DNA of 64,000 nucleotides from an uncultured Litoreibacter sp. (GCF_947501785.1 NZ_CANMXB010000001.1:1319048-1383047), one strand, 5' to 3'. Shown: positions 544 to 31,090, counted from the stretch's first letter. A program made the numbers and translations. Notes: generated by a model from the sequence alone, not told the origin.

Positions 544-1809
<1,266 letters not shown>

Positions 1810-1845
1810 GGACCCGCGACTTCGCGAAACAGCGCTTTGGTGTTA

Positions 1846-1873
1846 GGATCCTCCAACTCAGGTCGGAGGATCC
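1846..1873 (+). promoter_or_regulatory. perfect 9-bp inverted repeat (GGATCCTCC-N10-GGAGGATCC) whose 3' arm contains the SD of the GFA gene
   Basis: Arms at 1846..1854 and 1865..1873, with the ATG at 1875. It lies 37 nt after the aminotransferase stop. It could act as a terminator or attenuator and/or as an SD-sequestering hairpin. Confidence 0.4.
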
Positions 1874-1874
1874 A

Positions 1875-2249
1875 ATGAACGAGACAACAACAGGCCAGTG
1901 CTTGTGCGGGGCGTCCAGCTTCAGCGTCACAGAACCCCATAAATTCGCGATTCAATGCTATTGCCGGGACTGCCAGCACGTCTCAGGCGGGGGGCATCTG
2001 CCGCAGATCGGCGTCGCCCGCGCCGCATTCTCTTCCGCAGGGCCGGTCAAGACCTACACTCAGAAATCGGACGCGGGCAGCGACCTGTTCTTCTCGTTCT
2101 GCGCGGAATGCGGGTCTCCGCTGTTCAAGGCCACCGGCAAGGCCGCTGACCTGGTCTTCATCTACCCCGGCGCGCTGTCACATCCGCCAGAGGTGGATTT
2201 TGGCAACCATGTCTTTGAAAGCAGCCGCCAACCCTGGGACAAAGGTTAA
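1875..2249 (+). CDS. GFA (glutathione-dependent formaldehyde-activating / CENP-V-like) family protein
   Basis: 124 aa. Zinc-binding Cys pattern 'CLCG...CYCRDCQ...FCAECGSPLF'. GGAGGA SD just upstream. Confidence 0.8.
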   Translation: MNETTTGQCLCGASSFSVTEPHKFAIQCYCRDCQHVSGGGHLPQIGVARAAFSSAGPVKTYTQKSDAGSDLFFSFCAECGSPLFKATGKAADLVFIYPGALSHPPEVDFGNHVFESSRQPWDKG

Positions 2250-2341
2250 CGGGGAATTAAGCGCCAAGAATCCCTGTTCCCCGAGCGCACTGACTTGTGC
2301 TAGGCACGCCTAACGTTCACGTCACAGGCAAGTAACAGGAC

Positions 2342-2749
2342 ATGGCAGGCGAGCTTCCAGAGTTTTATTTTCGCGTTCGGGAGAACGGGGCCACCGTGTT
2401 TCGGGTGGACACCGAGAACCGGCAGCGCCGCATCGACATGTCGGAAATTGCGGTGGTCAACGTCAAGAACGGGCAGATCAAGCCGCATGGCGAGCATGAG
2501 CTAACGCCTGACGAGATGGAGGTCATCCAGGACTGGATGAACGAACGCATCGCGGTGATGGAAACCCGCGCCATCGATGACATCTACCGCGCCGTGGATT
2601 ATCTCAACCTCACAACCCACTGGGCGCAGACCCGCGCCGATGAAGAGCAGCTTGAAGACGTCACTGACGGGCTTTTGCTGGCGATGCATGACCTGCGCAC
2701 CGTGCTGGTCCGCAAGAAGGCGGACCGGCTCTTGAAGGGTGACGGGTAG
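2342..2749 (+). CDS. hypothetical protein
   Basis: 135-aa ORF with strong G/C third-position bias and no recognisable motif. Confidence 0.65.
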   Translation: MAGELPEFYFRVRENGATVFRVDTENRQRRIDMSEIAVVNVKNGQIKPHGEHELTPDEMEVIQDWMNERIAVMETRAIDDIYRAVDYLNLTTHWAQTRADEEQLEDVTDGLLLAMHDLRTVLVRKKADRLLKGDG

Positions 2750-2970
2750 AACGAAAACCATGTGGTTGGACTGCCCCACCCTGCCGGCGCCCGATGGCGG
2801 GCCTGCTACGCCAGCAGAGGGCAAGCGGGCGGGACTTTACCACCGCGCTTACCCCCCATTATGATGCCACGTCGGACCATTGGCTGACGCCGCCACAGCA
2901 GGTCGCACAGCGCATCGGCGTCCCCGTCACGCGGCTGGATGACCCCGCCGAATAATGCCATAGTCGCCAG

Positions 2971-3942
2971 ATGAAGTTGTTGAAACGTTTGGCATCCGCG
3001 GGCAAAAGGCGCCTCGTCGGAGCCGCACCCGAAGCCCCGCTCTGGGACCATCTCGACGCCTGCGGCATTCCGTTTCGCACCCCGATGGCCGATCTGATTT
3101 CCCAATACGGGTCCTACCCGATTGGGTGGAGCGAGGCTCTCGACACCTGCACGCCGCAAGGCCACGCGCAATTCATTGCGGGGCTGGCCCACCAGCCCAC
3201 TTTCCAGTTTTCCCGCGACACCGACCTGCTGGTGCCGGCCAACTACTTCTTCTGCGCCGTGCAGGAAAGCGCTGACCACCGCCTCAACTACGCCAAGGCG
3301 ATCCATGCGCTTGTCGGCCTGTTTGGCAAAGGCGAGCCGTCAAGCACGTCGAACACGGTCGCGCGGGAGTGGCGGTTCGGCCATGCGAGGCTCAGCTGCA
3401 CCGTCTGGCCGCCTGAGCGCCAGGACAAGGGCCGCAATTCCCGGCACGACATGTTTCCAGAAACCATTACCGAAGCGTCGATTACCTTCACCCCCGCGTG
3501 GCGGCCGCCGCTCAGCGCCGAAGAACGCGCCTATTGCGAGACCGCGCAGCCTTTGGATTTGGGCGCGCACCAATCCGCCGCCTACGGCCCTGTCGGCCCG
3601 CTGACCCGCGACTGGCCGGGTGACTTGGCGTCCCTGCCCCTCGGCCCGGCTTTCGCGCAAGACGATGCGGCGCTGCTATGCGCCACCGCGCCCGGGCTGG
3701 TCGACATCGTGCCACGCAGCTGGATCACCGCCATAGCCCTGGATCGCATCACCGGCGGTCGGGGCGGCATGGAGGCACTTGTGAAGTTGAATTTCGCCCG
3801 CTCCGGCCAGACCCATTTGCCAGAAAGCTGGATCACGCTGGCCTACGCCCATGGCGACCCGCACGCGCTGGATGCGCAGGCGGAGCAGTTGGCAGCCCGG
3901 CTTGGCCTCGAAATCAAGCTCTATGAAGGTCCTTCGGACTAG
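2971..3942 (+). CDS. hypothetical protein
   Basis: 323-aa ORF with coding-like codon bias. No signal peptide or motif recognised. Its stop overlaps the stop of the convergent MATE gene by 4 nt. Confidence 0.6.
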   Translation: MKLLKRLASAGKRRLVGAAPEAPLWDHLDACGIPFRTPMADLISQYGSYPIGWSEALDTCTPQGHAQFIAGLAHQPTFQFSRDTDLLVPANYFFCAVQESADHRLNYAKAIHALVGLFGKGEPSSTSNTVAREWRFGHARLSCTVWPPERQDKGRNSRHDMFPETITEASITFTPAWRPPLSAEERAYCETAQPLDLGAHQSAAYGPVGPLTRDWPGDLASLPLGPAFAQDDAALLCATAPGLVDIVPRSWITAIALDRITGGRGGMEALVKLNFARSGQTHLPESWITLAYAHGDPHALDAQAEQLAARLGLEIKLYEGPSD

Positions 3943-5303
3943 CCGCCTTGCGCCACACCTGCCGACATCTCGCGGAAGCGGCGCAGGAAGCGCCACCACA
4001 GCAGCACCGTGGCAAACAGCAAGCCGATGACCAGCCCCATCCACACGCCCACCCCGCCATAGCCCAGCGTGATGCCAAGAATGTAGCTGGCTGGGATGCC
4101 CATCACCCAATAGCTGAACGCGGCCATGATCATCGGCACGCGGGTGTCCTGGATGCCGCGCAGCACGCCAAGCGCCATCACCTGGCCCGCATCCACCAGC
4201 TGGAACAGCGCCGCCACCGCCAGCAGGGACGCGCCTATGGTCAGGATCACCTCCCGGTTCGGCTCGTCGGGGGCGATGAAGCCTTTGATCAGCAGTTCGG
4301 GCACACCGAGGAACGCGATCATCGTCAGCCCGACAATCCCAAGCGACAGCCCGACGCCCGCCATCCCGCCGCGCCCCAGCCCCGCCATGTCGCCCCGCCC
4401 AACCGCGCGACCAGCGCGCACGGTGACCGCCTGGCTCAGCCCGATATGGATCATGAAGGTGGCGCTGGTGATTTGCAGCGCAATTCCATGCGCGGCCAGC
4501 GGCAGCTTGCCAATCAGCCCAATGATCAGCGCGGAGGCGGAAAACATGCCGCTCTCGGCCAGATTGGTCAGCCCAATGGGCCAGCCCAGCCGAAACACCT
4601 CGTCCAGCGCGCCCGTGTCGGGCCGCCAGATGCGCTGGAACAAGGCGTGGTCCCGCAGCCCGTCGACCTGCGTGGCATAGAGGCCCAGCGCCGCGAGGGT
4701 CAGCACCTGCGTCAGCACCGATGCCAAAGCCGCGCCGCGCAGCCCCATTTCCGGGAAGCCGCCATTTCCGAAAATCAGCAGCCAGTTCAGCCCCGCATTG
4801 ACGCCAATCGCCGCGACGGTCACCCACAGCACCACCTGCGTGCGCTCCATCGAGGCCAGGTAGCTTTTCAGCACCATCACCAGCAAAGACGGGAACAGCC
4901 CGAAACCGGCGATGCGCAGATAGTCTTGCGCCAGCGCCGACAGCTCCTCCGTCTGCCCGGCCAATTGTAGCAAGGCCCCCGACCAGATCATTGCGGGCAG
5001 GAACACGGCGGCATAGATCACCGACAGCCACATCCCCATGCGGGTGACGCGGCGTATGCGCATCGCGTCGTCTTTTTCGGCCGCTTCCGCCACCATCGGC
5101 ATCACCGCGAAGGCAAAGCCCGACCCCATGATGAACACCACAAAGAAGAAGGAGGTCGCCAGCACCGAGGCCGCCAGCGCCGTCAGGTCATACCACCCCA
5201 GCATGATGGTATCGACCACATGCACGGCAAATTGCGCCAGGTGGCTGCCAATGAGTGGCAGCCCAAGAACCAGAAGGGCGCGTATGTGCTGGGGGTAGGT
5301 CAT
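3939..5303 (-). CDS. MATE family efflux transporter
   Basis: 454 aa, about 12 predicted TM helices. The N-terminus 'LLVLGLPLIGSHLAQFAVHVVDTIMLG' is typical of NorM/MATE proteins. Confidence 0.9.
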   Translation of the reverse strand: MTYPQHIRALLVLGLPLIGSHLAQFAVHVVDTIMLGWYDLTALAASVLATSFFFVVFIMGSGFAFAVMPMVAEAAEKDDAMRIRRVTRMGMWLSVIYAAVFLPAMIWSGALLQLAGQTEELSALAQDYLRIAGFGLFPSLLVMVLKSYLASMERTQVVLWVTVAAIGVNAGLNWLLIFGNGGFPEMGLRGAALASVLTQVLTLAALGLYATQVDGLRDHALFQRIWRPDTGALDEVFRLGWPIGLTNLAESGMFSASALIIGLIGKLPLAAHGIALQITSATFMIHIGLSQAVTVRAGRAVGRGDMAGLGRGGMAGVGLSLGIVGLTMIAFLGVPELLIKGFIAPDEPNREVILTIGASLLAVAALFQLVDAGQVMALGVLRGIQDTRVPMIMAAFSYWVMGIPASYILGITLGYGGVGVWMGLVIGLLFATVLLWWRFLRRFREMSAGVAQGG

Positions 5304-5351: not shown

Positions 5352-5699
5352 TCAGTACATGTCACCTTCTTGGCGCGGCGCGGTGGGGTTCGCCTTGTTC
5401 TTTAGCTGGCGGCCCAATTCCCTTTCGCATTCCTTCAAGCCGGCCGCCGATGGCCCGCCAAGGCCAATGTCGCAGCTTACCACAACATTCAAATGGTGAG
5501 CCCTCTCGCCTTTTGGAATAAGGACGTAGGAGCTTTGGTTGACCTGACTGTCGCTGTGTTCGACGTCGTCCGCTGTGTAGATATCGTATTGCGTGCCTTC
5601 GTATTCATACGTGCCAATGCGCTTGAAATTCTCAAACGACGAGCAGGCGCTCACCGCCAATATCAGCCCCGCCGCCAATGTCTTCGCAATTGCCTTCAT
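5352..5699 (-). CDS. small lipoprotein, paralog 1 of a three-member family in this window
   Basis: I trimmed the 167-aa track ORF to the ATG at 5699. The product is MKAIAKTLAAGLILAVSAC... (lipobox LAVSAC), 115 aa. It shares 'IGTYEYEG.QY.IY', a Cys...LKEC pair and a C-terminal 'RQEGDMY' with the ORFs at 7370 and 10253. It ends 48 nt upstream of the MATE start. Confidence 0.7.
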   Translation of the reverse strand: MKAIAKTLAAGLILAVSACSSFENFKRIGTYEYEGTQYDIYTADDVEHSDSQVNQSSYVLIPKGERAHHLNVVVSCDIGLGGPSAAGLKECERELGRQLKNKANPTAPRQEGDMY

Positions 5700-6025
5700 T
5701 ATCGGTCTCCCCTTCTCTGTCCCTCTTGCAAGTACCGCGCGTTGCCAACACGCGTTGCCAAAAGGATGGCCCAAAGCGCGGCGTTCGACGTCACCAATTC
5801 TGGTGATGCGGCCCAAAAAGTTTGGCTGTCCGGATGTCGCTCCATTTGGTCTCAAATACTCATATGTCCCCGCTGGCCCGACGCGCGCCCTTCGGATCAG
5901 GGCGGGCGCCGAGCACCGCGAGGCTAAATATGGCGCGCGCCGCAGGCGCTCAATCAGGTCACGCTTGCCTCACGCGCGGCGGCTGTGACATAGCGGTGCA
6001 GCAAGACTGACAGGCGAGACCGATT

Positions 6026-7348
6026 ATGGACACCGACACGCTGCCCCCTTTCGTGGCCCAGGCATTGGACTATCTGGCGCAGGGCTGGGACATTGCCCAA
6101 GGCTGGTTGCTGTCCCCCGCCGCATGGTCGCAATTTGCCATTCTGGTGGTGGCTTATGGTCTGGCGGTGGTGGTCAGCCGCATGGCGGTGCCCCGCATCG
6201 CCAAAGTGCTGACCCCGCCGGCAGACAATCAATCCGCCCTCGCAACCGCGCGCCGTTTCGTGCTGCAATTCCTGCCGCTGCTCTTGCCGCTCATCGCCTT
6301 CGTGTTGACTGGCGTCGGCGAACAGGCCACGCGATCAATCTTCGGCTCCGGCGAGGTCATCGCCTTTGGCAAACGCGTCTTCATCTTCATTGCCGCCCGC
6401 ATCTTCGTGCGCGACATTCTGAAGGTCCCGTTCCTCAAGCTTCTTGGCAAATACATCCTGATCCCGGTGGCCGCGCTCTATGCGGTCGGGCTTTTGGACA
6501 ACGCCACGCTGTTTCTGGAAGACACCCGTGTGCAGATCGGCAATATCGGCTTCTCGCTGATGGCGATCGTGCGCGGGGTCATCGCGGGGTCGATCCTGTT
6601 CTGGCTCGGTGGCTGGTCCAACCAGCAATCCGCTGACTATATCGAGCAGCAGGAAATCCGCCCCTCGCTGCGCACGCTGCTGATCAAGGCGGTCGAGTTC
6701 CTGATCTTCGGCGCGGCGTTCCTGTTGTTGATGAACATCATGGGCATCAATCTGTCCGCTTTGGCCGTCTTGGGCGGCGCCATCGGCGTGGGCCTCGGCT
6801 TCGGCCTGCAGAAAATCGCGTCCAACTTCATCTCCGGCGTGATCTTGCTCTTGGAAGGTCAGGCCACCGTCGGCGACTACGTGGAACTCGATGGCGGCGA
6901 ACAGGGCAAGATCGTCAAGATGATGGCCCGCGCCGCCATTCTGGAGACGTTCGACGGCCGCTGGGTCGTGGTGCCCAACGAGGATTTCATCACCACCCGC
7001 GTCATCAACTACTCCGACTCCGGCTCCGCCAACCGGTTCGAAGCCCCCTTCTCCGTCACCTACGAGACCGACATCAACCGCGTCCCTGACATCGTGGAAA
7101 AAGCTGTCGCCACCCACAAGGACGTGCTGTCCGAGCCCTTCCCCCCCGATTGCGAGCTGCGCGGTTTCGGCGAAAGCGGCGTCGACTTTGCTTGTGAATT
7201 CTGGGTGAACGGGCTGGATGACGGGGAGCATAAATACACCTCCGACATCCTGTTTTTGATCTGGAACGCGTTGAAGGACGAAGGCATCGAGATGCCCTAC
7301 CCGCGCCGCGTTATCGAAATCAAAGGCGGGATGCCCGGTCAGGACTAG
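6026..7348 (+). CDS. mechanosensitive ion channel (MscS family) protein
   Basis: 440 aa with multiple N-terminal TM helices. The MscS core is 'GVGLGFGLQKIASNFISGVILLLEGQATVGDYVEL...GKIVKM..RAAILETFDGRWVVVPNEDF'. Confidence 0.9.
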   Translation: MDTDTLPPFVAQALDYLAQGWDIAQGWLLSPAAWSQFAILVVAYGLAVVVSRMAVPRIAKVLTPPADNQSALATARRFVLQFLPLLLPLIAFVLTGVGEQATRSIFGSGEVIAFGKRVFIFIAARIFVRDILKVPFLKLLGKYILIPVAALYAVGLLDNATLFLEDTRVQIGNIGFSLMAIVRGVIAGSILFWLGGWSNQQSADYIEQQEIRPSLRTLLIKAVEFLIFGAAFLLLMNIMGINLSALAVLGGAIGVGLGFGLQKIASNFISGVILLLEGQATVGDYVELDGGEQGKIVKMMARAAILETFDGRWVVVPNEDFITTRVINYSDSGSANRFEAPFSVTYETDINRVPDIVEKAVATHKDVLSEPFPPDCELRGFGESGVDFACEFWVNGLDDGEHKYTSDILFLIWNALKDEGIEMPYPRRVIEIKGGMPGQD

Positions 7349-7369
7349 GCGCCCAACCGGCATCAGCCC

Positions 7370-7687
7370 TCAATACCCCATGCCGCCCTCGTCGCGCACC
7401 GGCGTCGCCTCCTTGGGGCGAAGCGCCTTGCCGAACCGGGTCCGGCAAGCCTCCAGGTCTTCACCCTCACACACCTCTATCGGCGACGCGGTCGCAAGGT
7501 TGGCCCCCGGTTCATACATAAGCAACACAGCGCCCGGCGACAGGAACGGCCCGTCCTCAATCGCGCTATACACCGGGTAGTCCTTGCCCTCATAGGTGAA
7601 GGTCCCTACGCGCTTTCGGTTGCCGTAAACGGTGCACGCGGTCACCAGGAAGCTTAGCGCCAGCGCCGCCAATACAAATCGTCTCAT
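7370..7687 (-). CDS. small lipoprotein, paralog 2
   Basis: Trimmed to the ATG at 7687, with GAGAGG SD-like sequence upstream. The product is MRRFVLAALALSFLVTAC... (lipobox), 105 aa. It carries 'VGTFTYEGKDYPVY', 'LMYEPG', 'CEGEDLEACRTRFGKALR' and C-terminal 'RDEGGMGY'. Confidence 0.7.
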   Translation of the reverse strand: MRRFVLAALALSFLVTACTVYGNRKRVGTFTYEGKDYPVYSAIEDGPFLSPGAVLLMYEPGANLATASPIEVCEGEDLEACRTRFGKALRPKEATPVRDEGGMGY

Positions 7688-7915
7688 AACACCTCTCATT
7701 CTTTGCCCCACAGAGCCGCAGCTTGGCCGCTTTTCCCCGGTCACGCATCACCAATTTTGGTGACGCGCCAGGCCGGCATCGTAGTTTCGGCGCGCACCCG
7801 GCACTGGGCGCCCGTAGCGGAAATTCCTTGGTCTGCGCCCGATGCCGGCGCTAGGCTTCGGCTGTGGCACCCGTTGGGGGGCCATTTCACGACCGGTATT
7901 TAAGGGGATCATTGA

Positions 7916-9469
7916 ATGACCAACGCATCAGCGACACCGCCAGACATTACAAAAATCATCACCGAGGCCTGCGCGCGCGGCATGACCGTGACCACGTGCA
8001 ACAGCGGCGACTACAAAGAGCGCAAAGCGGTGCACAACGCGCGGCTGGACAGCGATCCGCTGGTCATCGTGACCTGCCGCGACGCGCAAGACGTGTCTTT
8101 CTGGATGCAGTCGCTTGAGGGCATAGACATCTCCATCTCGGTGCGCTCCGGCGGGCATCACCACGAGGGTATGTGCTCCAACGACGATGGCGTGGTGCTG
8201 GTGATGCAACCCGACATTCCGCTGAAGATCATCGGTGACTTCGCGTGGATCGCGCCCGGACGCAAGCTCGGCGAGATCATTGGCGAGCTGGCCTCGCATG
8301 GTCGGATGATGCCAACGGGCGGCTGCGGCTCGGTCAATGTGGGCGGGCTGACCAATGGCGGCGGCTGGGGCATGTCCTACCGCAACAAGGGGCTGACAGT
8401 GGACGCACTGCGCGAGGTGGAGATGGTGCTGCCCGACGGGGAAATCGTGTCCTTCGACAAGGAAAAATTCACCAAAGGCAATACCGACCTCGCCACGGCG
8501 AAGGACCTGTTCTGGGCCATCCGCGGCGGCGGCGGCGGCAATTTCGGGGTGGTCACCCGCTTCAAGTTCGAGCTTTACGACCCCGGCCCGGTCTTCACCA
8601 CCTTCGCACTACAATATGGCAAACCCAGCCGTCACGAGGCGGCTTTGGCGTGGATGGAGCTGTGCAGATCAGCCGATCACAGGCTCAACACATTCGCCCG
8701 CATGTCGGTCGCCGATGGCGACGCCATCGAGCTGCGGCGGCCCGCGTTTTCCATCATCGGGGTGTTCTACGGCCCACAGGCAGATTGCGCAGAGGCGCTC
8801 AAGCCGGTGCTGGCGAAAGAGCCCTTCTCGATCAGTATCGAGCCGCATGAATTCGGCACGCAGGACAGCTATCAGCGCGCCATGTTCCTGAGCGCCGGGG
8901 GCGAAGGTCCCCGCGACAATGCCACCGGCGAGCTGCTGCCGCTGCAGGCCTATGCGTTGCAGGTCGGGGCGCTGTCGGCGGACGGCCCCAAAAGCACCTG
9001 CAAAACCCCCGAGCCGCATAAGATCAGCTCCGCCATCGTTGAAGACGGGTGTGATGAGGCGGTCCTAACTGCCGCTGAGGCCTATATCGACGCCCATCAG
9101 GACAAGGCGGATACCAATATGTATCTCAGCCTGCACGGCATGGGCGGATGCGGCGCGGATACCACCCAAAATGTCGACGCCGCCTTCCCCTGGCGCGGCA
9201 AGGCCTACATGTTGCAGGTGCAAGCGTGGTGGATAAAGGACTCACCCAAGGTGAAGAATTGCGAGATCCTTGACTGGGTCTGCGGCTTCCGCAAAAAGCT
9301 TGCCGACACGGGTCACGTTGAAGGCGCGTTCATCAACTTCCCCGACCGCAAACAGAAAATTCGGCTCTATTACGGCGGATCATGGGACGAGCTCTACCGC
9401 ATCAAAAAGCAGGTGGATGAGGACAACCGGCTGGGCTTCGAGATGGGGATATTGGGGCCACGGCAATAG
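7916..9469 (+). CDS. FAD-binding oxidoreductase with C-terminal berberine-bridge-enzyme-like (BBE) domain
   Basis: 517 aa. PCMH-type FAD-binding motifs 'SVRSGGHHHEG' and 'FWAIRGGGGGNFGVVT'. C-terminal 'YRIKKQVDEDNRLGFEMGI' resembles the BBE domain. Confidence 0.85.
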   Translation: MTNASATPPDITKIITEACARGMTVTTCNSGDYKERKAVHNARLDSDPLVIVTCRDAQDVSFWMQSLEGIDISISVRSGGHHHEGMCSNDDGVVLVMQPDIPLKIIGDFAWIAPGRKLGEIIGELASHGRMMPTGGCGSVNVGGLTNGGGWGMSYRNKGLTVDALREVEMVLPDGEIVSFDKEKFTKGNTDLATAKDLFWAIRGGGGGNFGVVTRFKFELYDPGPVFTTFALQYGKPSRHEAALAWMELCRSADHRLNTFARMSVADGDAIELRRPAFSIIGVFYGPQADCAEALKPVLAKEPFSISIEPHEFGTQDSYQRAMFLSAGGEGPRDNATGELLPLQAYALQVGALSADGPKSTCKTPEPHKISSAIVEDGCDEAVLTAAEAYIDAHQDKADTNMYLSLHGMGGCGADTTQNVDAAFPWRGKAYMLQVQAWWIKDSPKVKNCEILDWVCGFRKKLADTGHVEGAFINFPDRKQKIRLYYGGSWDELYRIKKQVDEDNRLGFEMGILGPRQ

Positions 9470-9483
9470 GCAATGCCCGGGCT

Positions 9484-10170
9484 TTATCCACCCGGAACCG
9501 CCAGCTTTTTCAGGTCCTGCAACGTGCCTTTGAAGTGGTCCAGGTCGACCGGGGTGTTGATCCCTAACACCTTGCCGCTTTCAGAATGCTGCCAGATCGT
9601 CCAGCCGGTCCAACCGGTGACAGGGCGCGGCGCGCGTACCCCGTATTCGGCCACCCAAAGCGGGTAATCCGAGAATGAGCCGTCGAAATTGGCGTTCCAA
9701 AACGCGGGCTCCGTATAGACGATCGGTGTGACCCCGTAATGCGCCTTCAACAGGCTCAGGAATTCATGCAGGTCGGCGATCATCGCGGTGCGCCCCTGCG
9801 GGTGTTGCTTGCGCTCCACGTCCACCATCGGCGGCAGGTCCCCGGGCTCCAGCGTCACGTGTTTGGTGAAATTGGCCAACTGGTCTTTGGGCGGGTCTCC
9901 CACCACGTAGAAATGATAGGCCCCCCGCGTCAGCCCGGCGGATTTCATGGCGGGCCAATTGGTGGCAAAGGTCTGGTCCCCCACCGTGTCGCCCTCGGAC
10001 GCTTTGGCGTAGGCCCAATCCACGCCCGCCCCCTTCACCTTGGCCCAATCAACCGGGCCCTGATCGTGGGACACGTCAACGCCGCTGGTCAGGGTCTCGG
10101 CATTGACGGCGATGGGGAGGCTTAAACAAAGCGCAAGCGCGCAAAGCAGCAATTTGGGCATGGCAGACAT
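9484..10170 (-). CDS. secreted glycoside hydrolase family 25 lysozyme (muramidase)
   Basis: 228 aa. Signal peptide 'MPKLLLCALALCLSLPIAVNA'. The GH25 start 'GVDVSHDQGPVDWAKVKGAGVDWAYAKASEG' and 'RGAYHFY' are present. An alternative ATG lies at 10161. Confidence 0.85.
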   Translation of the reverse strand: MSAMPKLLLCALALCLSLPIAVNAETLTSGVDVSHDQGPVDWAKVKGAGVDWAYAKASEGDTVGDQTFATNWPAMKSAGLTRGAYHFYVVGDPPKDQLANFTKHVTLEPGDLPPMVDVERKQHPQGRTAMIADLHEFLSLLKAHYGVTPIVYTEPAFWNANFDGSFSDYPLWVAEYGVRAPRPVTGWTGWTIWQHSESGKVLGINTPVDLDHFKGTLQDLKKLAVPGG

Positions 10171-10252
10171 CTCAAATAAGAAAAGCTATGCCGTATCATT
10201 GCCGAAAAAGGCGTATTTGTATACCTCCTTGCCCCGCCCGAGCCGGGCCAAA

Positions 10253-10570
10253 TTAGTACATGCCGCCCTCATCGCGGACGGCCGACCCGGCGGCACGCAG
10301 CTGCTTGCCGAATTCCGTGCGGCACGCTTCCAATGACGTATCCAAGCAGGATGCGGCAGCTTTGTGCGGAAAATAGTCGTCGGTGCCCGGCTCGTATAGA
10401 AAATAGGCGCTGCCGCCAGAGGAATTGGTCTGATAAGTCATACTGACGATTTGGTATTCCTTTCCCTCGTAGGAATATGTGCCGACCAATTGCGGACTAG
10501 AGTATCTCGGTGTCTCACAGGTCCCGATCGCGAACGCGATGACCATGAATAATGCAATTTTTAGTCCCAT
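10253..10570 (-). CDS. small lipoprotein, paralog 3
   Basis: 105 aa with lipobox-like 'AIGTC'. It carries 'VGTYSYEGKEYQIV', 'FLYEPG', 'CLDTSLEACRTEFGKQLR' and C-terminal 'RDEGGMY'. GGAGAG SD upstream. It ends 82 nt upstream of the GH25 gene on the same strand. Confidence 0.7.
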   Translation of the reverse strand: MGLKIALFMVIAFAIGTCETPRYSSPQLVGTYSYEGKEYQIVSMTYQTNSSGGSAYFLYEPGTDDYFPHKAAASCLDTSLEACRTEFGKQLRAAGSAVRDEGGMY

Positions 10571-10747
10571 TTACCACTCTCCTCAAATGCACTGGACGAC
10601 GCCAAGCGGTATCCAGGTGCCCCAAGCCTACACATTCACCTCGAAAAATCCAGCAATCCCTCTGCCCGCCAGGCACCGCAAACCCTTCCCCCGCCCCGCG
10701 CACTCTGGCATACTCAGCCGCAATCAAAAGAGCAGAGCAGCCAGCCC

Positions 10748-12700
10748 ATGTCCGACCTTCTGAAGACCGAATCCGCAGATCAGTATGACGCCTCCTCCAT
10801 CGAGGTGCTGGAGGACATGGAACATGTCCGCCTGCGCCCCGGCATGTATATCGGCGGCAAGGACGAGCGCGCGCTGCACCACATGGTCGCCGAGATCATC
10901 GACAACTCGATGGACGAGGCCGTCGCCGGTCACGCCACCTGGATCGAGGTGGAGCTGCATGATGGTGGCCATGTCTCCATCCGCGACAACGGCCGCGGCA
11001 TCCCCACCGGCCCGCACCCCAAGGACCCGTCAAAGTCGGCGCTGGAAATCATCTTCTGCACGCTGAATGCGGGCGGCAAATTCTCAGGCGATAGCTACCA
11101 GACCTCTGGCGGTTTGCACGGCGTCGGCTCCTCCGTCGTCAACGCGCTGTCGGACTATCTGCGCGTGGAAGTGGCCCGCAACAAAGAGCTCTTCGCCATG
11201 GAATTCTCCCGTGGCGTGCCGCAGGGCAAGCTGGAAAAGATCGGCGCGGCCCCCAACCGGCGCGGCACAGCCGTCACCTTCCACCCGGATGCCGAAATCT
11301 TCGGCCCGCTGAAGCTGAAACCGGCGGTGCTCTACAAGATGGCCGAAAGCAAGGCCTACCTGTTCTCCGGCGTCGAAATCCGCTGGAAGACCGGCATTGA
11401 CGACGGCACCACACCGTCGGAGGCCAAGTTCCGCTTCCCCGGCGGGCTGTCGGACTACCTGATGCAAACGCTGGGCGGCTCGACAACCTATGCCGATGCG
11501 CCCTTCGCGGGCTCCGTGTCGTTCGAGAAGTTCAACGCACCCGGCAAGGTCGAATGGGCGATCAACTGGACCCCGTCGCGCGACGGGTTCATGCAATCCT
11601 TCTGTAACACCGTCCCAACGCCCGAGGGCGGCACGCATGAGGCGGGCTTCTGGGCTGCGATCTTGAAAGGCATCAAGGCGTATGGCGAGCTGACCAACAC
11701 CAAGAAGGCCTCCACCATCACCCGCGAGGATCTGACGACCGGGGCCGGCGCGCTGGTCAGCTGCTTCATCCGCGACCCCGAATTTGTGGGCCAGACCAAG
11801 GACCGGCTGGCCACGGTCGATGCGCAGCGCATGGTGGAGAATTCGGTGCGCGACCATTTCGACAACTGGCTTGCCGCCAACACCAAATCCGCCGGAGCCA
11901 TCCTCGACTTCCTCGTGCTGCGCGCCGAAGAACGCCTGCGCCGCCGCCAGGAAAAGGAAACGGCCCGCAAATCCGCAACCAAGAAGCTGCGCCTCCCCGG
12001 CAAGCTGACCGACTGCACCGCCAAATCGCGCGAGGGCACCGAGCTGTTCATCGTCGAGGGCGACTCCGCTGGCGGCTCCGCCAAAGGCGCGCGCAACCGT
12101 GAAACGCAGGCGCTGTTGCCGCTGAAAGGCAAAATCCTGAACGTGCTGGGCGCGGCCTCAAACAAGCTGACCACCAATGCCGAGATTTCCGATCTGTGCG
12201 AAGCGCTCGGCTGCGGCATGGGCGCGAAGTTCAACGCTGACGACCTGCGGTATGAAAAGATCATCATCATGACCGACGCCGATGTCGACGGCGCGCATAT
12301 CGCGTCACTGCTGATGACCTTCTTCTTCGTGCAAATGCGCCCGCTGATCGATCAGGGCCACCTGTATCTGGCCTGCCCGCCGCTTTATCGCCTCACCCAA
12401 GGCGCGCACCGCATCTACGTCCCCAATGACGAGGAAAAGGACAAGATGATGGAGAAGGGTCTGGGCGGCAAAGGCAAGATCGACGTGCAGCGGTTCAAAG
12501 GTTTGGGCGAGATGGACGCCAAGGACCTCAAAGAGACCACCATGAACCCCAAAACCCGCCAGCTCATCCGGGTCACCCTAGGCGAGGACGTTCCGGGTGA
12601 GACCGGCGACCTGGTCGAGCGGCTGATGGGCAAGAAGCCGGAACTGCGGTTCGAGTACATTCAGGAGAACGCGCGGTTTGTTGAGGATGTGGATGTTTAG
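10748..12700 (+). CDS. parE: DNA topoisomerase IV subunit B
   Basis: 650 aa. GHKL ATPase N-terminus 'LEDMEHVRLRPGMYIGG', Toprim 'ELFIVEGDSAGGSAK' and 'IIIMTDADVDGAHI'. The length is typical of alphaproteobacterial ParE rather than GyrB. Confidence 0.9.
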   Translation: MSDLLKTESADQYDASSIEVLEDMEHVRLRPGMYIGGKDERALHHMVAEIIDNSMDEAVAGHATWIEVELHDGGHVSIRDNGRGIPTGPHPKDPSKSALEIIFCTLNAGGKFSGDSYQTSGGLHGVGSSVVNALSDYLRVEVARNKELFAMEFSRGVPQGKLEKIGAAPNRRGTAVTFHPDAEIFGPLKLKPAVLYKMAESKAYLFSGVEIRWKTGIDDGTTPSEAKFRFPGGLSDYLMQTLGGSTTYADAPFAGSVSFEKFNAPGKVEWAINWTPSRDGFMQSFCNTVPTPEGGTHEAGFWAAILKGIKAYGELTNTKKASTITREDLTTGAGALVSCFIRDPEFVGQTKDRLATVDAQRMVENSVRDHFDNWLAANTKSAGAILDFLVLRAEERLRRRQEKETARKSATKKLRLPGKLTDCTAKSREGTELFIVEGDSAGGSAKGARNRETQALLPLKGKILNVLGAASNKLTTNAEISDLCEALGCGMGAKFNADDLRYEKIIIMTDADVDGAHIASLLMTFFFVQMRPLIDQGHLYLACPPLYRLTQGAHRIYVPNDEEKDKMMEKGLGGKGKIDVQRFKGLGEMDAKDLKETTMNPKTRQLIRVTLGEDVPGETGDLVERLMGKKPELRFEYIQENARFVEDVDV

Positions 12701-13587
12701 ATATTTGCACTAGCTAGCAACTTCATCAGCTGTGTTTCTGAAATAAACTCGGGCTTACCGGAGGCTTCTCTTAACTTAATAGCCTTTTCAATTTTGGTAC
12801 CTTTGTGAGTATATTTCCAGTCCCGAGAAGACTCATTTGCTATTATCACGAAATTGGTTTTCTTGCATGGCGACGACTTTGCCCGTGCGCCACATGCAGC
12901 AAGGTAGTCCTCAAGAATTCGACGCGGTTTAGTTTCGAAGTTTCCTGTCAACACAAGCAGCGAATTCTCAAAGTCGTCTATCGAAGATAGTGTCGCTTCT
13001 TCAAATACCGGCACATATCCAAGCGAACTGATTCCAGTATCTGCGTAGCAATCTCCCACTAGCCGGGTGATCGCGCGACAAATCTCCTGTGATTCCCCCG
13101 GGTCGATCACTCCATCATCTACTGAATCCGCACAGCAGACGACGATGGTACGAGAAATGGGATCTTCCAGAACTGACGGTGATGCTGCTGCCATATTAAG
13201 CACCCCCTGCGCCTCCTCAAGAGTGATTAGGTCATCACAAGCTATTCCTGAGCAATAGCCCATAAACCTATTTATTTCTGTTTTTTGGCAGTTCTGCTTT
13301 AGGTTCTTGCTTCGGAATACAACTATGTCTTCCAGCTGCTGAAAATCCAAAACGTCAGCTTTGAAATCCTCTAGTATGTCGTATGCGTCTTCGTCCCCCA
13401 TTGCGTCCAACATCTGCGCGCATACAACAACCAAAGGTTCAACTTCACCAAGCTCAATTCTTTGACTCGCCCGGACACCCTCCAGAAACCCAGTAAAATA
13501 GCCTGAAAATTTTCCGTTATTAGCCTCACGGTGAACACGCGCAAGTGCATCACTACCAACATCCCAAGTATTCAATTCACTCTCCAT
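12697..13587 (-). CDS. BRCT domain-containing protein with repeated acidic helical N-terminal modules (function unknown)
   Basis: 296 aa. The C-terminus 'LLVLTGNFETKPRRILEDYLAACGARAKSSPCKKTNFVIIA...GTKIEKAIKL...FISETQLMKLL' fits the LigA-type BRCT pattern. The N-terminus holds repeats of the form 'F.GY..G....I.L.E' and 'DDGVIDPGESQ'. The gene is clearly AT-richer (about 40-45% GC by eye) than its flanks. Confidence 0.8.
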   Translation of the reverse strand: MESELNTWDVGSDALARVHREANNGKFSGYFTGFLEGVRASQRIELGEVEPLVVVCAQMLDAMGDEDAYDILEDFKADVLDFQQLEDIVVFRSKNLKQNCQKTEINRFMGYCSGIACDDLITLEEAQGVLNMAAASPSVLEDPISRTIVVCCADSVDDGVIDPGESQEICRAITRLVGDCYADTGISSLGYVPVFEEATLSSIDDFENSLLVLTGNFETKPRRILEDYLAACGARAKSSPCKKTNFVIIANESSRDWKYTHKGTKIEKAIKLREASGKPEFISETQLMKLLASANI

Positions 13588-13844
13588 ACAGAAATATTTT
13601 ATTTGAAATCACGTTTGCCAAATCGTGGATTAGAACCGCTTTCAATGCAACATCCGTAGTCAAAGCTGGCAAGCCGTAGCACGCGTCGGGTGCATATTAA
13701 CACGCACCACCCCACCCAAGCCGCGCAGGAATGCGCCGAAACCCAAAGTAAAATACACGAAATCGGGAAACCGCCGCTCCAATTCCCCATGAAACGCTGC
13801 CACCCGGTCCCAACCTCTAAGTTACCCCCAACAGAAAGGACCCT

Positions 13845-14084
13845 ATGCAATTCAATTTCATGTACAGCTCGTTCAGGGACTTCTTCTCCTCCTTCACCTC
13901 GCCACGGGCGGAGGTCAGGCCGGGCTTGAACCACACCAATCTCCGCGTGCAAAAACGCGGCACCGCCGCCAACCCTGAATACATGTTGCGCTTCAGCTCC
14001 TGGGGCAACATCCTCTATGTGCGCCTCGACGAGCACGAGTTTGACCGCCTGGAAGCGGCCTTTGACGAAATCAAGCGGGCCTGA
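13845..14084 (+). CDS. hypothetical small protein
   Basis: 79 aa with strong G/C third-position bias. AAAGGA SD 6 nt before the ATG. No motif recognised. Confidence 0.55.
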   Translation: MQFNFMYSSFRDFFSSFTSPRAEVRPGLNHTNLRVQKRGTAANPEYMLRFSSWGNILYVRLDEHEFDRLEAAFDEIKRA

Positions 14085-31013: not shown

Positions 31014-31090
31014 CGGGCTATGGCGCAGCCTGGTAGCGCGTCCGTCTGGGGGACGGAAGGTCGCAGGTTCGAGTCCTGCTAGCCCGACCA
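31014..31090 (+). tRNA. tRNA-Pro (anticodon GGG)
   Basis: Hand-folded cloverleaf. Acceptor stem CGGGCTA/TAGCCCG with discriminator A and encoded CCA. D stem GCGC/GCGC. Anticodon stem TCCGT/ACGGA with loop CTGGGGG (anticodon GGG, G37). T stem GCAGG/CCTGC with loop TTCGAGT. Confidence 0.9.

Follow-up and report, generated by a model that had tools for sequence, protein, structure and literature searches.

Recognition of a protein through a terminal or near-terminal aromatic residue is known in the periplasm from the beta-signal of the beta-barrel assembly machinery (BAM) and from the DegS-activating YxF motif, and the TolB box of colicins (DGSGW) likewise serves as a recognition element, with its aromatic residue set in a disordered peptide rich in Asp, Gly and Ser. 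Related examples are provided by pairs of a lipoprotein and a protease, namely NlpI with Prc, and LbcA with CtpA in Pseudomonas. In the case of MepS, a peptide of the 12 C-terminal residues, the presumed ligand for Prc's PDZ domain, blocks MepS degradation, and the terminal LSRS-COOH peptide has been modelled bound to this domain (PMC5686067). Here we describe three small genes, L1, L2 and L3, in a stretch of 64,000 nt from an uncultured Litoreibacter sp. (GCF_947501785.1, NZ_CANMXB010000001.1:1319048-1383047; hereafter the window, with positions counted from its first letter), which a first-pass annotation, made by a model from the sequence alone, had singled out as dispersed copies of an unrecognised lipoprotein family interleaved with envelope genes. 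They belong to a rare, lineage-restricted and unannotated family of small Sec-exported proteins of marine Alphaproteobacteria, about 90 aa long in the mature form, and the distinctive element of this family is a near-invariant free C-terminal Tyr motif carried on a flexible tail.

Three paralogs of a rare, unannotated family

All three open reading frames (ORFs) lie on the minus strand, exactly where the first-pass annotation had placed them, and the motifs that it quoted for them were read correctly. L1 (5352..5699, 115 aa) has a signal peptide with the lipobox VSAC (Cys19 codon at 5643-5645), a mature domain of 97 aa and the tail ...APRQEGDMY (5355-5381). L2 (7370..7687, 105 aa) has the lipobox VTAC (Cys18 codon at 7634-7636) and the tail VRDEGGMGY (7373-7399), while L3 (10253..10570, 105 aa) has the atypical lipobox IGTC, with Thr at -1 (Cys18 codon at 10517-10519), and the tail VRDEGGMY (10256-10279). 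L1 and L3 each have a Shine-Dalgarno-like sequence ahead of the ATG. The single architecture and the paralogy that had been proposed for the three copies were borne out when the mature parts were compared by BLASTP with the leaders removed, L2 and L3 being 43% identical (E 3e-17) and the pairs L1/L2 and L1/L3 giving E-values of 3e-9 and 4e-8. The same motifs were found again in homologs from other genomes, a check that had been named in advance against chance similarity, and the resemblance is therefore not accidental. No fourth copy was detected in the window, either by tblastn with each protein or with the family hidden Markov model (HMM) on the six-frame translation.

In a family tree computed from an hmmalign alignment of the members, L1, L2 and L3 were placed in three different subclades. 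The nearest relatives of L1 are P0003 (97%) and P0005 (41%), and the orthologs of L3 are P0004 (64%) and P0009 (56%), whereas L2, apart from its identical database entry, is related to P0015 and P0010 at 47-48%, barely above its identity to L3 (44%). Since the three copies fall into three subclades, and since clearly nearer relatives of L1 (P0005, 41%) and of L3 (P0004 and P0009) are encoded in other genomes, they are, judged from their sequences, true paralogs that diverged long ago. L2 and L3 are identical to P0001 and P0002, respectively, both of which are labelled 'hypothetical protein, uncultured Litoreibacter sp.'.

When 1.84 billion representatives at 50% identity were searched exhaustively with the HMM, 35 proteins matched at E<=1e-3, 12 of them at E<=1e-10. 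Of these 35 matches, 34 are small family members of 94-143 aa with the same architecture, and the outlier, P0039 (556 aa), matched solely in the hairpin motif described below. This large, unrelated protein holds two copies of 'QGTYTY(N/G)G.DY.I(Y/F)LLGCD', both matching only the hairpin part of the profile, so that the hairpin motif Y-x-Y-x-G-x-x-Y is not confined to the family. Only 6-9 proteins were returned when 5.8 billion clusters were searched by word index, and a third search added one weak member, P0052. All family-wide statistics given here refer to a set of 38 members. The named hosts are Litoreibacter (Roseobacteraceae), Lentilitoribacter (Rhizobiaceae) and Roseibium (Stappiaceae), and the remaining members come from metagenome, run-assembly or metagenome-assembled genome (MAG) records, three of them labelled 'Pseudomonadota bacterium'. 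Identity in the body of the protein is only about 25-30% across the family, and one to four diverged copies are present per genome. In three related assemblies, a fourth member, P0041, is found at an unrelated locus beside a flavin mononucleotide (FMN) reductase gene.

The proposal that the family is unrecognised held when the HMM and profile checks were run. Neither L1-L3 nor any of the 38 members, scanned singly at permissive thresholds, matched Pfam-A or NCBIfam, and a PHROGs scan of the same proteins gave nothing meaningful. A PADLOC scan of the window proteins was empty, no PDB chain sequence matched profiles of 9 and 38 sequences at E<=10, and tblastn found no homolog in collections of phages (50,697 records) and plasmids (72,556 records). 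No relatives appeared in a pattern scan of JGI metagenomes, and a narrow scan of genome contigs with a back-translated pattern matched only L. meonggei. Two source labels look like annotation artefacts. The L. janthinus member P0012 is labelled DUF2799 in UniRef, yet none of the 38 members (0 of 38) matched DUF2799 at E<=1 in hmmscan against Pfam-A, and nothing relevant on DUF2799 was found in the literature searched. Likewise, neither hmmscan nor the genomic context bore out the IMG label 'radical SAM superfamily enzyme' on the Lentilitoribacter member P0022. For annotation, the name 'hypothetical protein' could give way to a new family model.

An exported domain with a conserved C-terminal tail

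Each paralog starts, according to its sequence, with a leader of the Sec type that ends in a conserved Cys. The first-pass annotation had assigned a lipobox to each, which is true of L1 and L2 under a strict rule of the PROSITE PS51257 type ([LVI][ASTVI][GAS]-C about 15-35 residues from the start, with a positive n-region and a hydrophobic h-region), but not of L3, whose IGTC fails it because of the Thr at -1. Altogether 31 of the 38 members conform to the strict pattern, L1 and L2 included, and among those that fail it, several are incomplete at the N-terminus or carry Cys at -3. In L3, P0004 and P0009, which make up the L3 subclade, the lipobox is IGTC or VGTC with the Cys kept in register, and in the L3 leader the sequence A-I-G would also make a plausible signal peptidase I site.

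The mature proteins were modelled with AlphaFold2, for L3 from 9 sequences (model m24413d933ff7; predicted local distance difference test, pLDDT, 83.7; predicted template modelling score, pTM, 0.69) and for L1 from 38 sequences (model m33fb43068891; pLDDT 85.6; pTM 0.73). The two independent models have the same topology, in which a long beta-hairpin and two further strands form a four-stranded sheet and are followed by one long C-terminal helix. The long hairpin carries the motif G-T-Y-x-Y-E-G-x-x-Y in both, which agrees with the hairpin-like structure that had been suggested for the N-terminal motif. The shared Cys pair was also confirmed, as two Cys are invariant across the family, the first lying in strand 4 and the second, 6-14 residues away, where the helix begins, and 34 of the 38 members have exactly these two Cys past the signal-peptide region. 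In the models their positions make it likely that they form a disulfide, stapling the helix to the sheet. Foldseek searches of PDB with both models (best E 0.26 and 0.59) and of BFVD with the L3 model (best E 0.048) gave nothing significant, so that the predicted structure is a small alpha/beta fold without a match in the libraries searched.

The C-terminal tail had been described as nearly invariant on the basis of three copies, and its conservation proved strong throughout. A terminal Tyr is present in 37 of 38 members (97%), the ending M-(G/K)?-Y in 31 and Gly at position -3 also in 31, and Glu, Asp or Gly predominate at positions -4 to -6. The tail is rich in Gly, Ser, Asp and Glu, its Met content is 9.7% compared with 0.8% in the body, and the C-terminus follows the second Cys at a variable distance (18-28 residues). 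Both models assign low confidence to the residues after the helix (mean pLDDT of the blocks 44 and 54). Codons of the tail and of the hairpin vary synonymously between genes and all three stop codons are used, and the constraint therefore acts on the protein. As far as the alignment and the models allow, a conserved terminal motif on a variable, low-complexity and low-confidence linker is what characterises a short linear motif on a tether, and a role of the tail as a docking or sorting signal is plausible. In the literature searched, nothing relevant was found on 'C-terminal tyrosine' lipoproteins.

Genomic context and duplication

The neighbours named in the first-pass annotation were identified correctly, both by Pfam and by coordinates. 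A MATE exporter gene (Pfam MatE; 3939..5303, minus) lies 48 nt downstream of L1, an MscS gene (Pfam; 6026-7348, plus) is convergent with L2 with 21 nt between them, and a gene for a GH25 muramidase with a Sec-type leader (Glyco_hydro_25; 9484-10170, minus) is separated from L3 by 82 nt. Between L2 and L3 there is also a FAD_binding_4/BBE oxidase gene by Pfam (7916-9469, plus), and beyond L3, divergent from it across an intergenic region of 177 nt, lies a gene for a GyrB/ParE-type topoisomerase subunit of 650 aa (10748..12700, plus), here called parE.

The functional link to adjacent envelope genes that had been drawn from this arrangement did not stand. What is conserved is a frame with parE and the MATE gene at its edges, in the order parE, divergent family gene, variable content and MATE gene. 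The parE frame is present in the compared loci L001, L004, L005, L007, L020 and L023, and apparently also in L003, L008, L021 and L022, in which parE is represented by no more than a short 5' fragment at the contig end; in the short contigs L003 and L008 this fragment adjoins a family gene. The frame holds one family copy in L. meonggei and two in L. janthinus (L020). In the MAG GCA_028284705.1 it encloses PPK2, three tandem family copies, EamA and PPK2, and in the MAG GCA_039195745.1 an L3-type copy followed by Kelch, FolD, AraC, MscS and a 363-aa protein. It is also found in the close relative L004, and in the P0025 loci, which are more distant, with an identity of 73% for parE and of only 53% for MATE. 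Outside this clade the neighbours are unrelated, among them GerE/LysR regulators, dnaE with a biopterin hydroxylase, a PAD_porph enzyme, an extracytoplasmic function (ECF) sigma/anti-sigma pair and the FMN reductase, and no conserved partner gene was found across about 10 independent contexts. Homologs of the GH25 muramidase and of the BBE oxidase were absent by tblastn from all 23 other family loci compared, and these two genes look like an insertion between L2 and L3 that is specific to the source genome. The next gene to the L3 orthologs P0004 and P0009 is instead a Kelch-repeat protein without a signal peptide, presumably cytoplasmic. MscS lies inside the frame in the window, in L004 and in L007, and adjoins family genes only in the window. 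Functional coupling to MATE, EamA or MscS was considered and rejected, as these genes share one interval in related, and hence not independent, genomes, and the tight spacing is seen only in the window. The neighbouring MATE, MscS and GH25 genes thus appear to be bystanders rather than partners, and gene adjacency inside a variable genomic interval is a poor guide to function.

In regard to the expansion of the family, tandem arrays were found with four copies in L003, three in L005/L006, and two each in L014 and L020. In L020, from L. janthinus, a parE 5' pseudogene fragment (8545-8723, minus) lies between the copies at 8001-8354 and 8996-9355, which is direct evidence that the family gene multiplied by segmental duplication of a unit made of the parE 5' end and the family gene. 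Unrelated genes, in the window MscS, the oxidase and GH25, are inserted in the interval as well. When window positions 10259-10748 are compared with L004, nucleotide identity breaks sharply between parE and L3: it is about 90% on the parE side as far as position 10683 but 66% across L3, while MscS is 80% identical. The L3 orthologs are 56-64% identical in amino acids, compared with 82-98% for the flanking genes. Taken together, the break in identity and the fast divergence of L3 indicate that L3-type genes lie at the edge of a replaced segment.

Several further features of the region were recorded. Directly after parE, at 12500-14000, GC content falls to 0.49-0.55 from about 0.62 in the surroundings, and an ORF of 296 aa (12697-13587, minus) with a weak BRCT domain had no PADLOC match; different genes occupy this position in relatives, so that variable spots flank parE on both sides. 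On the other side of the frame, an ORF of 323 aa (2971-3942, plus) is convergent with the MATE gene and has no Pfam or PADLOC match. A 46%-identical homolog occupies the same position in L. janthinus (L020, 12061-12966), and the ORF is therefore a second conserved hypothetical gene of the syntenic block. The only tRNA or Rfam match in the window is a tRNA-Pro(GGG) at 31014-31090 (plus). In L009-L011 (about 920-4830) and in L014 (12744-14411), the distant members P0022 and P0017, respectively, lie a few kb from similar modules consisting of DUF1376, small ORFs and an HTH_3-Peptidase_S24 repressor. In L014 an IS1595 transposase and RhuM accompany the module, and the surroundings may therefore be prophage-like or mobile.

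Possible function and alternative explanations

The explanation that we favour, with a probability of roughly one half, is that a membrane-tethered periplasmic domain presents a C-terminal docking motif to a partner, and that the window holds three old paralogs of such a rare exported family. With moderate confidence, the N-terminal lipid anchor and the very short linker after it would hold the domain against the membrane, facing the periplasm, and the disulfide would staple the helix to the sheet. With low to moderate confidence, the flexible tail would then offer the free carboxylate of its Met-(Gly)-Tyr end to a partner able to read C-termini. A periplasmic protease with a PDZ domain would be the likeliest type of partner, for which the family protein could serve as a tethered ligand, an adaptor or a regulated substrate, and other possible readers are propellers of the TolB type, or BAM or DegS with their recognition of terminal aromatics. 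Since no partner gene is linked to the family, such a reader would belong to the generally conserved components of the envelope. A more specific proposal, which we regard as possible but rather doubtful, is that the acidic, Gly-rich tail with its Met-(Gly)-Tyr-COOH end is a dedicated, so far undescribed periplasmic recognition signal for docking, degradation or sorting, read by a specific machine of marine Alphaproteobacteria, to which the one to four paralogs of a genome would all present their different domains.

Several points weigh against the docking explanation. Low pLDDT is no proof of disorder, and the tail could pack on the domain or only aid its stability. No partner gene is encoded near family members, and the docking partner is itself a prediction. 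The PDZ pocket of Prc is small and hydrophobic and has been modelled with LSRS-COOH, not with an acidic, Gly-Tyr end (PMC5686067). The fast divergence of the L3 orthologs (56-64% against 82-98% for the flanks) would also fit an arms race and hence an immunity role. Furthermore, the lipid anchor of the family is itself predicted, and lipidation is uncertain in the L3 subclade, where, with Thr at -1, signal peptidase I may cleave instead; the disulfide, finally, is suggested by invariance and topology only.

Among other roles, the first-pass annotation had raised that of a lysozyme inhibitor or immunity protein for L3, comparable to MliC/PliC, PliG and Ivy, and the gene does lie 82 nt upstream of, and co-directional with, the gene of a GH25 enzyme with a Sec signal. 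Known lysozyme inhibitors are small periplasmic proteins or lipoproteins, as the family members would be, and they target lysozymes of the c, g and i types; to our knowledge, none targets GH25. MliC is an inhibitor of this small periplasmic or lipoprotein type (PMC13036076). The adjacency is not conserved, however, as GH25 is missing from all 23 other family loci and the L3 orthologs P0004 and P0009 adjoin the signal-peptide-less Kelch protein instead. None of the 38 members has a Pfam match at E<=1, and hence none matches a lysozyme-inhibitor family. The models show a four-stranded sheet with one helix and not the eight-stranded beta-barrel of MliC/PliC, neither a PF08816 match nor the Ivy fold was found, and Ivy itself (E. 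coli structure 1xs0) gave a TM-score of 0.18 (E 1.3) by Foldseek. MliC, PliC and PliG are absent among the best 50 PDB matches for either model. In two of the three related Litoreibacter assemblies examined, a 275-aa PF08816 (Ivy) protein is encoded about 3 kb from the fourth family member and directly after ruvCAB (L017, 2415-3242; L019, 3285-4112), and the lineage therefore already has a canonical lysozyme inhibitor elsewhere in the genome. Nothing relevant on GH25 inhibitors was found in the literature searched. The inhibitor role is thus unsupported by co-occurrence or fold, and we consider it very improbable, for L3 as well as for the whole family.

An immunity function in a broader sense would see the genes as an array of fast-evolving lipoproteins that give immunity to interbacterial toxins or mask receptors against phage, with orphan copies in a recombination hot spot. 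The two to four diverged paralogs per array, the variable interval with its sharp drop in nucleotide identity near window position 10683 (from 90% to 66%), the rapid divergence of the L3 orthologs relative to their flanks, and the two distant members a few kb from the DUF1376 and S24-repressor module all fit such a scenario. It is nevertheless unlikely, because no toxin, type VI secretion or contact-dependent inhibition gene is adjacent in any context, PADLOC and PHROG matches and phage or plasmid homologs are lacking, and the invariant tail and hairpin argue for one shared, conserved partner rather than for diversified toxins. On the other hand, the proteins could be structural or stress lipoproteins, envelope fillers resembling OsmB or OsmE, in which the tail aids folding, stability or membrane association and has no specific partner. 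For many small lipoproteins restricted to one lineage no partner is known, none is conserved as a gene here, and MscS is part of the interval in the window as well as in L004 and L007, though it is not adjacent to family genes outside the window. A free terminal Tyr in 97% of members, on a variable low-complexity linker and next to a body only about 25-30% identical, is typical of a recognition motif, and we regard the structural role as possible but rather doubtful. The resemblance of the tail to E-G-G-M-Y, together with the radical-SAM label on P0022, could also bring to mind a ribosomally synthesised and modified peptide or cofactor precursor whose C-terminal Tyr is processed by a radical-SAM enzyme, as in PqqA (E-x3-Y) or MftA (...GVY). 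That label is not reproducible, the proteins have a Sec or lipoprotein leader and a confidently folded domain of 80 aa, the Glu-Tyr spacing is not fixed, and no radical-SAM, PqqB-E or MftB-F gene was present in any context examined, so that this origin is essentially excluded.

If, as the docking explanation holds, the tail is a genuine recognition signal, a single terminal Tyr would offer a compact and easily mutated handle for finding an envelope machine that reads C-termini, in the roseobacter group, whose envelope biology is poorly charted.

Comparison with known systems

The best mechanistic analogy for the tail is offered by MepS and Prc with the adaptor NlpI, and by LbcA-CtpA, where the C-terminus of an outer-membrane lipoprotein is read by a periplasmic PDZ domain. 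The likeness would be limited to this principle, as MepS belongs to the NlpC/P60 hydrolases and NlpI and LbcA to the tetratricopeptide repeat (TPR) proteins, none of them related to the family in sequence or fold, and the tail described here is acidic, Gly-rich and ends in Tyr, in contrast to the LSRS-COOH end of MepS. The terminal or near-terminal aromatic residue recalls the BAM beta-signal, the YxF motif and the TolB box. Unlike outer-membrane proteins that carry such signals, however, the family members are not beta-barrels, the register of the ending varies between MY and MGY, and the beta-signal consensus does not fit.

In regard to the fold, a weak, partial likeness to the half-barrels of LolA-like proteins, LprG and LppX, which are also lipoproteins, recurred with both models and consists of a curved antiparallel sheet on a helix (TMq 0.40-0.48). 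This likeness is not significant (E 0.66-1.4), it covers about 65 aligned residues of targets of 180-205 residues, and the TM-score stays below 0.5. The domain of the family is half the size, has a single helix and leaves no obvious room for a ligand cavity. MliC/PliC, PliG, PliI and Ivy are likewise small Sec-exported proteins or lipoproteins of Gram-negative envelopes, and one family copy, L3, adjoins a muramidase gene, but the family differs from them in its fold, in the lack of a Pfam match and in a muramidase neighbourhood that is not conserved.

What is established so far is a family of hypothetical proteins that is new to the curated and fold libraries searched, and not a new system, and it adds to the catalogue of lipoprotein folds a small alpha/beta domain unmatched in PDB or BFVD. 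Should the tail prove to be a dedicated signal, the family would represent a new tail-addressed lipoprotein module built on this fold.

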